In this document: piece after piece, positions 2,756 to 63,881 of the stretch
Position numbering within the stretch: position 1 is the first letter of the stretch
How the letters are laid out: each line of letters begins with the position of its first letter
The notes under the pieces: model-generated
Database searches by the model: none
What the model was told of the DNA's origin: nothing
What the model saw: only the letters and a program-made list of their open reading frames with translations
Source of the DNA: Escherichia coli
GTDB lineage: Bacteria > Pseudomonadota > Gammaproteobacteria > Enterobacterales > Enterobacteriaceae
Direction: 5' to 3' (one strand)
Assembly: GCF_045037415.1 (NCBI RefSeq)
Contig: NZ_CP173438.1
DNA: 64,000 bases
Position numbers and translations under genes: made by a program

Positions 2756-3322
2756 ATGGCAAGTCAGGCTGAGGTTGCAGCACATTTACTGCTATCTGAT
2801 CGTCGTCTGCGCGATCTCGCAAAACTTCCGGGAGCACCAGTCCCACAAGGACGTGGTGATTGGGAGCTAGACGCATGGCGCCATTTTTATATTCGTTATC
2901 TCCGGAGCAATAGACGCGACACAACTAGTAATGACGAACCGGAAGCGGGGGACAATTCTCCCGAAAAAAATCGCGAGCAGTGGCTGAAAAATGAGGAACG
3001 ACAGGAGCGAATCCTGATGGCACGAGTAAAACGCCGCATTCTCGCTAAACGCTACGCGCCAATTGAATTAATTAGCGTCGCTGTATCTCGCGTCGCCGTT
3101 GAATTACGTACCCGCGTCGAGTCGTGGCCACCACGCCTGAAAAAGGTCTGGCCGGAGATGCCGCAAGAGGCGAGCAGTGTATTACGAGAGGAGCTGGCGA
3201 TAGCCTTAAATGAGTTGTCAGACATACGAATCGACTTCAGCGATTACGATGTCAGCGATATCGAACGCGATCTCGACAGGGTTGAATCCCTTGCGCGTGA
3301 CGATACCGATGACGGGTGTTGA
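2756..3322 (+). CDS. terminase small subunit (Nu1-like)
   Basis: 188-aa ORF immediately upstream of and overlapping the large terminase; position and size. Confidence 0.6.
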   Translation: MASQAEVAAHLLLSDRRLRDLAKLPGAPVPQGRGDWELDAWRHFYIRYLRSNRRDTTSNDEPEAGDNSPEKNREQWLKNEERQERILMARVKRRILAKRYAPIELISVAVSRVAVELRTRVESWPPRLKKVWPEMPQEASSVLREELAIALNELSDIRIDFSDYDVSDIERDLDRVESLARDDTDDGC

Positions 3323-13007: not shown

Positions 13008-13924
13008 TAACATCAACAGTTCAGAATTCGATAGTGAAAACTATTGATATGAGTCTGCTGCCGCCGCCAGCATTCGTTAAAACCCCGTTATTTTCAGATG
13101 TTAAATCTAATCTACTGTCAGAGCTGCAGATATTATATCCACAATTTAACGCACTCCTGGAGTCAGACCCGGCCGTTAAACTGCTGGAAATAGTTGCATA
13201 CAGAGAAATCATTATTACAGCTCGGGTAAATCAGGGGATGCTCGCTGTATTGCTCGCGTTTGCAAAGGGGAGTGACCTCGACCAGATTGGCGCTAATTTT
13301 GACTGCCTGCGGCTGTTGATAACGCCAGCTAATCCCGATGTAATTCCCCCGACTGAGGCTGTTTACGAGAGTGACGACGAGTATCGACACCGAATACAGC
13401 TATCATGGTATGCGCGGAATACTGCCGGCAGTACGAACGCCTATAACTATTTCGCGCTGTCGAGTGATCCCGACGTTCTGTCAGCTCAGGCGTACGGCCC
13501 GCCGGTGACCCAGCCTGGATACGTCGATATGTATGTCTTGTCGCGAACCGGCGACGGCACTCCGCCTCAATCACTACTGAATACAGTGAATGCGGCCCTG
13601 TCTCCTGACGATACTCGACCGCTGACTGATTTCGTGACTGTAAAACCTGCGTCGAACCTGAATTACCGGGTTGAGGCCGTTATCGTAGCCGGGCTCGGAC
13701 CCGACCAGAACGTTTTGCTTAACGGTGCTCAGAGCGATTTGGCGATATATGTGGATACGCAACATAAAATCGGAGCGACGGCAGCTCTGTCAGGAATTTA
13801 CGACGCGATACATCGTGACGGCACTGAACGTGTGATTCTGATATCGCCAACAGAGGATGTGATCGCTGGCGTCGGGCAGGCTCCGTACTGCACAGAAATC
13901 AAACTCAGCGTGCAAATGGGGTAG
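13004..13924 (+). CDS. baseplate assembly protein J
   Basis: 306 aa, size and position match P2 gpJ. Confidence 0.8.
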   Translation: MITSTVQNSIVKTIDMSLLPPPAFVKTPLFSDVKSNLLSELQILYPQFNALLESDPAVKLLEIVAYREIIITARVNQGMLAVLLAFAKGSDLDQIGANFDCLRLLITPANPDVIPPTEAVYESDDEYRHRIQLSWYARNTAGSTNAYNYFALSSDPDVLSAQAYGPPVTQPGYVDMYVLSRTGDGTPPQSLLNTVNAALSPDDTRPLTDFVTVKPASNLNYRVEAVIVAGLGPDQNVLLNGAQSDLAIYVDTQHKIGATAALSGIYDAIHRDGTERVILISPTEDVIAGVGQAPYCTEIKLSVQMG

Positions 13925-61992: not shown

Positions 61993-62235
61993 TTACTTCC
62001 TTTTTATGGCTCGTAATTTTTTCAGGTGCTTTTCCTGCTCAGTGTCCGCGAGAATTTTGCGGTACTCCTGGTGGTCAATATGTTCGAACAGGCAGTTTAA
62101 CTCACCAATGCGTACCCGCCCGGATCGTCCGTCCATCCGTCGAAAGAACACTGAGTGCTCAGTGATGCGAGTAATCACCACGGGGTATCCGGCTCTGTCC
62201 GTGTATATCTGACCGCGTTGAATCAAAGCGAACAT
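61993..62235 (-). CDS. hypothetical early protein (80 aa from ATG at 62235)
   Basis: ORF track 61993..62289 with internal ATG closely following upstream stop. Confidence 0.5.
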   Translation of the reverse strand: MFALIQRGQIYTDRAGYPVVITRITEHSVFFRRMDGRSGRVRIGELNCLFEHIDHQEYRKILADTEQEKHLKKLRAIKRK

Positions 62236-62239
62236 GTGG

Positions 62240-62323
62240 TTATCCCCAGCGGCAAATCGAATACACCACCAGCGCCACCGCCATCGCAATTCCTACCGTT
62301 GTTAATGCTTCAGGCCAGGTCAT
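62240..62323 (-). CDS. 27-aa hydrophobic peptide [27 protein letters not shown] (single predicted TM helix)
   Basis: Hand-translated; ATG overlaps upstream stop (ATGA); GGAGG 9 nt upstream. Confidence 0.4.
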
Positions 62324-62664
62324 CGTAAAATATCCTCCACGCTTATCAGTCCGTTCCGCTCCAGATAACTCATCGCCTTATCCGGTAATTTGCAGTCTGG
62401 CTTCGCTTTCCTCAGTTGCCAGGTTAACTGCTTTACCAGCATGGTTAACTCATCGACCAGACGCTGATATCCCACTGGTTTGTATTCATGCAATTTACCG
62501 GCTGGCTCTGCTACCAGCGATACCAGTGCGATTTCCAGAACAGCAATATCCATCTTATATGTGCGGATGATGTCATGGTCGATTGTGCCCGGTATGCACA
62601 GTCTCTGTGCTTCAATAGTCTCCTCTGCGTGAGCTATTAACTGCTCTCTGGTAAAAGTCGTCAT
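62320..62664 (-). CDS. hypothetical early protein (114 aa), divergent member of paralogous family
   Basis: ORF track; shares MTT.T.E start and ..IALVSL.AEP motif with the two paralogues upstream. Confidence 0.6.
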
Positions 62665-62827
62665 GCCGTAGCCCCTTCTTGATATTTTTCAAACCAGAAC
62701 ACAACCGGCTCTGCTTCCAGCGATACCAGCGCAATCCGTGCCAGTTCCATTTGTTCACCACGGGTAAGCCCGTTTTCAAGCGGATTTTTAATGAACAATT
62801 CAATACGTTCTTTGGTAATAGTGGTCA
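62660..62827 (-). CDS. 55-aa protein [44 protein letters not shown]..., stand-alone copy of the N-terminal module of the 136-aa paralogue
   Basis: Hand-translated; AGGAG RBS; ATGA overlap with downstream gene. Confidence 0.5.
62700..62827. repeat. copy 1 of about 125-bp imperfect direct repeat (about 88 percent identical to 63388-63514)
   Basis: Aligned by eye. Confidence 0.7.
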
Positions 62828-62838
62828 TGTGTTACTCC

Positions 62839-63103: not shown

Positions 63104-63514
63104 TCACTCTCCTTTCCCATGAAGCATAGCGGCGCGGCAGGCGTTCCAGCCTGTAGCGTATGCAGCCGCTTTGCTGCTGCCTTCAACTGGCGCATCCTGC
63201 CAATACATTTCATCCGGCACTACCGGCGCTGGCAAGGCAGCGTGATAGTAGAGTGGCATAGTTTTGTACAGTGGTTCGCCAGGACTTCCGTCAACCTGAT
63301 TCCATTCTTCAACCCAGGCATCAACAACCGCTTTGCTGGTTGATACATGTTCTTCTGAATCTACATTTTGTCCTGATATACAGAACATAACTGCCTCTGC
63401 TTCCAGCGATGCCAGAGCAATTCGTGCCAGTTCCATTTGTTCGCCACGAGTAAGTCCGTTATCAAGCGGATTTTTAATGAATAATTTGATACGTTCTTTG
63501 GTTATAGCGTTCAT
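63104..63514 (-). CDS. hypothetical early protein (136 aa), N-terminal module [40 protein letters not shown]
   Basis: ORF track 63104..63556; ATG at 63514 with AAGGAGAGTGA RBS. Confidence 0.55.
   Translation of the reverse strand: MNAITKERIKLFIKNPLDNGLTRGEQMELARIALASLEAEAVMFCISGQNVDSEEHVSTSKAVVDAWVEEWNQVDGSPGEPLYKTMPLYYHAALPAPVVPDEMYWQDAPVEGSSKAAAYATGWNACRAAMLHGKGE
63388..63514. repeat. copy 2 of about 125-bp imperfect direct repeat
   Basis: Aligned by eye. Confidence 0.7.
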
Positions 63515-63515
63515 C

Positions 63516-63881
63516 TCACTCTCCTTTGATGCGAATGCCAGTAGCGCGGATTGCATCGATGACTTCAGAAACTTTGTATGCCATTACCGTTTGGTAATCA
63601 TCGTGAAAATCTGTTCGATGAAGCATGCTGCTACGTTCCGGGAGCGATATTTCCCGAGCATCCAGTTCCTTAACGCGCTCCTCCAGTTCGTAGACCCTGC
63701 ATTGTTCTCTATCATCAATCAGATATAACCCAAGACATTCGCTTTCTACCCAACCGCCAAAATCATGATCGTAACGCTCACATGAAAACTCACCGTCACC
63801 GTCCTTTGTTGGAATGGTGTAACTATCTAATGGGCCACCATATGTCGGCACATTTCCCAATGTTGGATGCTCAATCCACAT
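63516..63881 (-). CDS. hypothetical early protein (121 aa)
   Basis: ORF track. Confidence 0.5.
   Translation of the reverse strand: MWIEHPTLGNVPTYGGPLDSYTIPTKDGDGEFSCERYDHDFGGWVESECLGLYLIDDREQCRVYELEERVKELDAREISLPERSSMLHRTDFHDDYQTVMAYKVSEVIDAIRATGIRIKGE

Follow-up and report, generated by a model that had tools for sequence, protein, structure and literature searches.

A 27-codon open reading frame (ORF) is found in an early operon of a lambdoid prophage of Escherichia coli, where its start codon overlaps the stop codon of the preceding gene and its own stop lies just before the next start. It was asked whether so short a frame is a gene at all, and what its peptide would do for the phage. 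The window, i.e., the whole stretch of DNA that was analysed, is 64,000 nucleotides long (NZ_CP173438.1). An earlier note had proposed a real ORF at this place. Its coordinates were exact, and the strand, which it left unstated, is minus. The features around the ORF are collected in Table 1.

Table 1. Position of the 27-codon ORF, its translation signals and the neighbouring genes in the window
Feature	Position	Strand	Remarks
27-codon small ORF	62323..62240	minus	ATG 62323-62321, TAA 62242-62240; 84 bp
Shine-Dalgarno (SD) GGAGG	62338-62334	minus	10 nt before the ATG, within the last codons of the upstream gene
ATGA start/stop overlap with upstream gene	62320..62323	minus	upstream TGA at 62322-62320
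Upstream 114-aa hypothetical gene	62664-62320	minus	WP_021519728.1 in an identical genome; stop overlapped by the start of the small ORF
Downstream DUF4222-family gene	61993..62235	minus	ATG at 62235, 4 nt past the stop of the small ORF; PGAP name, from identical sequence
48-aa ORF	61989-61843	minus	same-strand run after DUF4222
Excisionase (xis)	61834-61598	minus	same-strand run
Tyrosine integrase (int)	61542-60229	minus	abuts chromosomal yecE (DUF72)

The prophage is of the lambdoid type and integrated at yecE, and the small ORF is part of its leftward arm. In a 100% identical genome, a LexA-family (CI-like) repressor, an HTH protein and small accessory genes including an Ea22-like one are placed further upstream on the same strand, and the Rha, replication and Q genes are divergent on the other strand. 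No exo, bet or gam gene is annotated in this prophage arm of the identical genome. The early-left location that had been proposed before is thus borne out, with the repressor, the Ea22-like accessory genes, the ORF, DUF4222, xis and int on one strand.

Two nearby minus-strand genes of the window (62661-62828 and 63104-63556) share an Ea22-like N-terminal module, i.e., ITKERI(E/K)LFIKNPL(E/D), 16 further residues and (V/A)SLEAE. The 55-aa member of this pair resembles a truncated duplicate. The same N-terminus starts a 286-aa protein in a phage-plasmid of the Salmonella phage SJ46 type (L100). Past the end of the window, near the Q antiterminator of the identical prophage (NZ_CP018991.1 558000-560408, i.e., L288 1-2409), a DUF262 protein, a MAE_28990/MAE_18760-family HEPN-like nuclease and a DNA cytosine methyltransferase were found. 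This set may be prophage-borne defence or restriction-modification cargo.

The ATG overlapping the upstream stop and the GGAGG ribosome-binding site, both claimed earlier, were found as described. The spacer of 10 nt is somewhat long but still usable. From the ATGA overlap and the SD, translation of the ORF is predicted to be coupled to that of the upstream gene. A consensus scan of the region found no minus-strand promoter-like site, and Rfam gave no match at E ≤ 1 for it; both absences agree with a polycistronic operon. The same kind of scan listed two weak terminator-like sites on the minus strand, both outside the 84 bp and in about the number that is found in shuffled sequence. The last codons of the ORF, TGG GGA (62243-62248, minus strand), contain a weak SD-like GGGGA 7 nt before the DUF4222 ATG. 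The conserved C-terminal W-G may be constrained twice, by the peptide and by its part in the SD of the next gene.

On its own, the 27-codon ORF is no better than chance, because the background is too rich in ORFs: 89 ORFs with a length of 20 aa or more overlap the 5 kb around it. It rises above chance because its frame, length, start, stop and peptide sequence are all conserved. Among 30 intact DNA variants, the variable sites numbered 9, 8 and 21 at codon positions 1, 2 and 3, and an identical peptide was encoded by many variants differing by up to nine synonymous changes; this set was gathered via peptide similarity and is biased for that reason. A second sample of 102 homologues was collected with a frame-agnostic nucleotide anchor, placed in the first 29 nt only. 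The conservation of the frame in homologous prophages, which had been set beforehand as the test of the ORF, was found in this sample. The ATG-started 27-codon frame was intact in 96 of the 102 copies, two others started with GTG, and four were longer by at least one codon. In the part not constrained by the anchor, pN/pS was 0.35 in frame, compared with 0.79 and 2.28 in the other two frames, where the value of 0.35 is only moderate and the sampled sequences are related, not independent.

Relatives of other lengths differ by whole codons, i.e., 24 aa in the phage-plasmids of the Salmonella phage SJ46 type and 23 and 25 aa elsewhere. Among 60 E. coli copies that were sampled evenly, about five had length changes of 1 bp. 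Three indel copies were read (L010 1201-1283, L011 1201-1285 and L012 1201-1283), and all were homopolymer-length changes that break the frame. The other differences of the copy in L012 were mostly synonymous. These homopolymer indels could be decay in cryptic prophages or errors of long-read sequencing or assembly. The frame is under purifying selection, and the small ORF is very probably a real protein-coding gene and a member of a family.

The gene had been called unannotated. This holds for the 100% identical RefSeq record, where PGAP left the ORF out, and for every other record inspected. It does not hold for GenBank throughout, since a few deposits contain the exact peptide under the names "Prophage protein", "bacteriophage protein" and "hypothetical protein". 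The minimum gene length of Prodigal is 90 nt. One likely reason for the missing annotation is that 84 nt falls below the common minimum lengths of gene callers.

Searches for a known family gave no assignment. Pfam (queried with a 50-aa family member and with the window peptide padded with GSG), NCBIfam and PADLOC returned nothing meaningful, with DUF883_C at E = 0.045. In PHROGs, only insignificant matches were obtained, i.e., phrog_4612 (E = 0.011) and phrog_35838 (E = 0.15). The KdpF model TIGR02115 scored 12.5 bits over 12 residues (E = 0.12) against a cut-off of 26.85. Motif strings gave no relevant match in the full text of the papers searched, and the peptide sequence was not found in the supplements of the "Cryptic Bacterial Microproteome". 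It was also absent from the supplements of a ribosome-profiling study of Sakai (EHEC), in which only ORFs of at least 30 aa were scored. In the databases and literature searched, the family is apparently undescribed and without a public name.

Some copies carry the NCBI name "DUF551 domain-containing protein, partial", which is an artefact of naming and clustering. A Pfam search showed no DUF551 in the peptide, and the clustered DUF551 proteins of 121 and 185 aa do not contain the peptide. The link arose from partial calls at contig edges, which run through the 3' end of a DUF551 gene in the frame of the peptide (P0030, P0035 and P0036). Clustering at 90% identity places 27-aa peptides under the 121- and 185-aa DUF551 representatives (P0002, P0020-P0035).

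Other known phage functions were considered and rejected. A holin does not fit the int-proximal leftward arm, far from the lysis genes; there was no PHROG holin match, and the peptide has only 27 aa, whereas holins usually have at least 60 aa. Lambda Kil, Rac KilR and DicB were rejected on the lack of a Pfam, NCBIfam or PHROG match. These division inhibitors are soluble and not transmembrane proteins.

The distribution of the 84-bp unit was examined by blastn with the 84 bp alone. Of 5426 complete E. coli genomes, 1633 (approximately 30%) contain it, at 3109 places in total, with up to seven copies per genome and 163 of the places on plasmids. The unit is present in the Stx phages 933W, VT2-Sakai and VT1-Sakai and also in Salmonella phage SJ46. 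In Klebsiella phage ST16-OXA48phi5.3, an unannotated family variant of 22 aa with WPTAF lies just upstream of xis-int. The K-12 prophages Rac, Qin and DLP12 contain no homologue, so K-12 datasets are uninformative on expression. Among species-representative genomes, the E. coli-type N-terminal pattern was found only in an Escherichia sp. contig and in a 369-bp contig of "Acinetobacter idrijaensis" (L015, JQCU01000559.1). Another E. coli-type copy, with approximately 97% DNA identity, lies in PP818812.1 (Actinobacillus phage vB_Apl-pPE4) at 13011-13189. The copies in JQCU01000559.1 and PP818812.1 are likely due to contamination or mis-assigned hosts.

When a query with longer flanks was used in blastn, the alignments broke repeatedly at query positions 347/348 and 431, which are the first and last bases of the ORF. 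Hundreds of prophage alignments begin or end precisely at these bases. The small ORF is therefore an exact mosaic joint between lambdoid modules. About 100 fetched copies fell into 11 upstream and 13 downstream context clusters. On the upstream side lie, among others, genes of the 114-aa family, genes for several DUF551 proteins, L0139 of 933W and an EaA-like gene. The ORF is followed by DUF4222-xis-int in some copies and elsewhere by hok/sok loci, by terminator-like hairpins with parDE after them, or by other sequence; across contexts, homology stops exactly at the stop codon. The ATGA overlap is kept in every context, with at least 10 different upstream genes, and 11 of the 12 upstream-context representatives have a stretch of purines resembling an SD ahead of the ATG; the remaining one, L096, reads cggagaaca. 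As the SD and the ATGA are kept and homology ends at the stop, the moving unit is the SD plus the ORF, as a gene module. The small ORF thus acts as a self-contained mobile 84-bp gene module that carries its own SD, degenerate in L096.

In many E. coli contexts (L004, L006, L008, L047, L066, L076 and L093), the small ORF is the final gene before a strong terminator-like hairpin. Examples of these hairpins are AAAGATCCCG...CGGGATCTTT and AAAACCCCGG...CCGGGGTTTTT, which are followed by hok/sok or by parDE in the opposite orientation. In 933W-type phages, the ORF lies beyond att and adjoins hokW. The variant of EDL933 and VT1-Sakai (L003 1499-1585, L290 998-1084) has two adjacent ATGs (ATGATGAAT). 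In this two-ATG context, GenBank holds a 28-aa form, MMNWPEAF... (ASL58468.1), and a 45-aa form whose start lies within the DUF551 gene (P0036). With two adjacent ATGs and differing GenBank annotations, the choice of start site in the EDL933/VT1-Sakai context is ambiguous.

Distant relatives were searched with a degenerate DNA pattern for codons 1-11 only (M-x-W-P-E-A-F-x-x-V-G), from which E. coli codon choice was excluded. Thirteen viral and 50 metagenome stretches were retrieved, giving 46 distinct peptides on contigs with a GC content of 0.33-0.71. Of the 41 complete distinct peptides, 38 were hydrophobic over residues 12-21 and 21-31 aa long, compared with 3.3% of null ATG ORFs from the same contigs, and only two pattern matches looked like chance. 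Positions that the pattern leaves unconstrained were also shared among 40 complete distant peptides: A at position 13 in 19, a small residue at position 15 in 36, A at position 17 in 24, W at position 21 in 15, the first K/R at position 25 in 18, and a positive C-terminal net charge in 31. The family signature is MxWPEAFxxVG at residue 1, small residues at 13, 15 and 17, W/Y at 21, R/K at 25 and a length of approximately 21-31 aa, although the peptide-derived search pattern itself accounts in part for the "invariant" residues at the N-terminus.

A profile of 44 members was compared with 1.84 billion representative proteins, and 201 clusters were matched at E ≤ 0.001, all of 24-107 aa. Wherever the start was correctly called, the motif stood at residue 1, and the longer members added only polar, charged C-terminal tails. 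The variants WPTAF, WPDAF and WPQAF exist, so E5 is not absolutely fixed. A tblastn search of the phage collection with two distant or consensus peptides gave no match, probably because of low-complexity masking. The phage-like contigs on which the motif recurs come from metagenomes of soil, water and gut.

Among 44 distant members, 27 have a start that overlaps the stop of the ORF before it (-4 or -1 nt), and an overlap of their stop with the following start is frequent. The readable contexts are phage early regions, with RecT, YqaJ-like or PD-(D/E)XK exonuclease and MBL-fold genes nearby, the gene names coming partly from Pfam labels and partly from the reading of translations. No conserved neighbour gene that would hint at a partner or pathway was found among the 44. 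The window peptide fits the N-terminal motif from residue 1, with L replacing the usual F at position 7, and it fits the rest of the signature with A13, A15, A17, Y21, R25 and 27 aa. Its gene fits the family setting as well, i.e., a packed phage accessory run and a start overlapping the preceding stop. The ORF is no local peculiarity but a mobile gene module, and it belongs to a phage microprotein family that is widely spread and marked by a strict motif at the N-terminus. This goes beyond what the earlier note had seen in it.

The translation of the window ORF contains W3-P4-E5-A6, V10-G11, A13/A15/A17, Y21, R25 and W26. The single hydrophobic helix that had been predicted for it agrees with the hydropathy. 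The Kyte-Doolittle mean was 2.16 for residues 6-24 and 2.46 for residues 10-24, which is consistent with one membrane helix. Localisation of the peptide to the membrane is accordingly regarded as probable, as predicted from its composition. A lipoprotein or signal-peptide reading was rejected by sequence inspection, as a basic N-region is absent and the Y-S-I before the sole Cys misfits a lipobox. The acidic N-terminus (E5), the basic C-terminus (R25) and the aromatic residues at both ends suggest a single-pass helix with the N-terminus out and the C-terminus in.

It is reasonable to propose that the ORF encodes a 27-residue single-pass inner-membrane microprotein, which would be translated by coupling to the preceding gene in the leftward accessory run. 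In the predicted N-out/C-in topology, W3 and Y21/W26 would be placed at the two membrane interfaces, and G11/A15 and A13/A17/Y21/R25, on faces of the helix, would form a small-residue surface for helix packing. The peptide may then dock on a conserved host inner-membrane protein and modulate it during early lytic growth or induction. Docking is favoured because the N-terminal cap is conserved above bulk hydrophobicity and because the family spans very different hosts. A partner-binding mechanism, rather than a non-specific membrane poison, is still put forward tentatively, and an even chance would overstate it. The explanation taken as a whole, i.e., a coding, coupled inner-membrane microprotein that docks on a host membrane protein, is given slightly better than an even chance.

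A broader form of the docking account can be imagined. The peptides would belong to an undescribed and widespread group of "WPEAF peptides", missed by length limits, that target one universal envelope machine, e.g., FtsH, YidC/Sec or a component of the divisome. The near-invariant N-terminal cap and the small-residue helix face would be retained for that targeting. This form is rather doubtful.

A different function is conceivable for the same membrane peptide, namely host killing, which the earlier note had named first, or membrane damage. The peptide would then form oligomers in the inner membrane and, once the early operon is derepressed, collapse the proton motive force or stop growth. Known type I toxins are of similar dimensions, i.e., TisB 29 aa, DinQ 27 aa and Hok approximately 50 aa, and the size and hydrophobicity of the peptide are within this range. 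In the lysogen it would stay silent, provided that it is transcribed only from the repressed leftward operon, and most E. coli contexts adjoin hok/sok or parDE modules. However, a hok neighbour makes up one of the 13 downstream contexts. No antisense RNA, own promoter or Rfam match was found, and the peptide resembles neither Hok/Gef, Ldr, Ibs and TisB nor any model of NCBIfam, Pfam or PADLOC; these searches speak against a type I toxin-antitoxin toxin. The strong SD and the operon coupling also differ from a translationally locked message. The best conserved part is a specific N-terminal motif, which suggests recognition over bulk membrane damage. Host killing is therefore regarded as unlikely.

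The frame might instead be translated for the sake of its position, as a functionless bridge ORF that hands ribosomes over or shields the transcript from Rho, or the DNA might be a recombination linker at gene boundaries. Start and stop overlaps are common on both sides, the 84-bp block is the exact joint between different mosaic modules, and the last codons provide the next gene with an SD-like sequence. Yet the peptide is conserved where the DNA is not, as seen in the GC range of 0.33-0.71, the synonymous excess and the lowest pN/pS in frame. In many E. coli contexts, moreover, the ORF is the last one before an intrinsic-terminator-like hairpin, where there is nothing to couple to, and a bridge ORF needs no fixed N-terminal motif, small-residue stripe or basic C-terminus. 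This possibility is very improbable. Still fainter is the chance of a non-coding element (a small RNA, a terminator or a protein-binding site) or of a part of another gene. A TTG-started 98-aa ORF, which is an N-terminal extension of DUF4222 (TTG 62289), and a 57-aa plus-strand ORF (62155-62328) overlap the region, and antisense frames are open across the 84 bp in most variants. Against this, PGAP starts DUF4222 at ATG 62235, each of 49 variants has stops in both of the other sense frames, and the overlapping ORFs cannot be the conserved unit, since they reach beyond it into flanking sequence that is exchanged from one context to another. Within the 84 bp there is no promoter-like or terminator-like site, and there was no Rfam match at the threshold given above. 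Such an element can hardly be expected here.

The existence of this gene has a practical meaning. It is present, often in several copies, in approximately 30% of the complete E. coli genomes, the major Shiga-toxin phages included, and standard pipelines skipped it in all records that were inspected. Its motif in phage-like metagenome contigs offers a testable way into the "dark" microproteome of phages. Should a conserved membrane machine prove to be modulated by the peptide, the machine would have a compact natural ligand, and the early contact between phage and host would gain a new player; if the peptide is merely toxic, it would be another silent killer gene in prophages. The 84-bp block also marks exact joints of the lambdoid mosaic, which is useful for the comparison and annotation of prophages.

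The closest setting among known systems is the exo-xis region. Accessory genes of this region in the lambdoid leftward arm influence lysogenisation and induction (PMC4195576). The genes orf60a, orf61, orf63, orf73, ea22 and ea8.5 of lambda and their phi24B homologues are likewise small, dispensable, poorly understood and leftward (PMC4195576). They lie between the immunity/recombination region and xis-int, and the small ORF occupies the same niche with Ea22-like or EaA-like neighbours. However, none of them is a 27-aa transmembrane peptide, and they have no sequence similarity to the small ORF. The place beyond att in 933W-type phages also differs from the exo-xis position between exo and xis.

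The small regulators of membrane proteins, i.e., AcrZ, MgrB, MgtS, MgtR, PmrR, KdpF and CydX (PMC12648545), are alike in having fewer than 50 aa and a single helix. The small-residue faces of the peptide would suit helix-helix packing, and the likeness is one of working principle only. Unlike these regulators, the peptide is phage-borne and mobile, with no sequence relationship to them and no adjacent partner gene. The toxins Hok/Gef, TisB, DinQ, Ibs and Ldr share its size, hydrophobicity and prophage location, and the ORF is frequently adjacent to hok/sok. The peptide differs from them in that no antisense RNA, dedicated promoter, control by mRNA folding or model match accompanies it, and it is SD-coupled in an operon.

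Lambda CIII and SpoVM of B. subtilis are small inhibitors of FtsH. Both are amphipathic surface helices and not transmembrane. They are comparable to the peptide as small early or membrane-associated peptides that are aimed at a universally conserved membrane machine. They have no sequence similarity to it, and the comparison serves purely as a lead. As the family extends over hosts with a GC content of 0.33-0.71, its members would need a target that is universally conserved in the manner of CIII and SpoVM.
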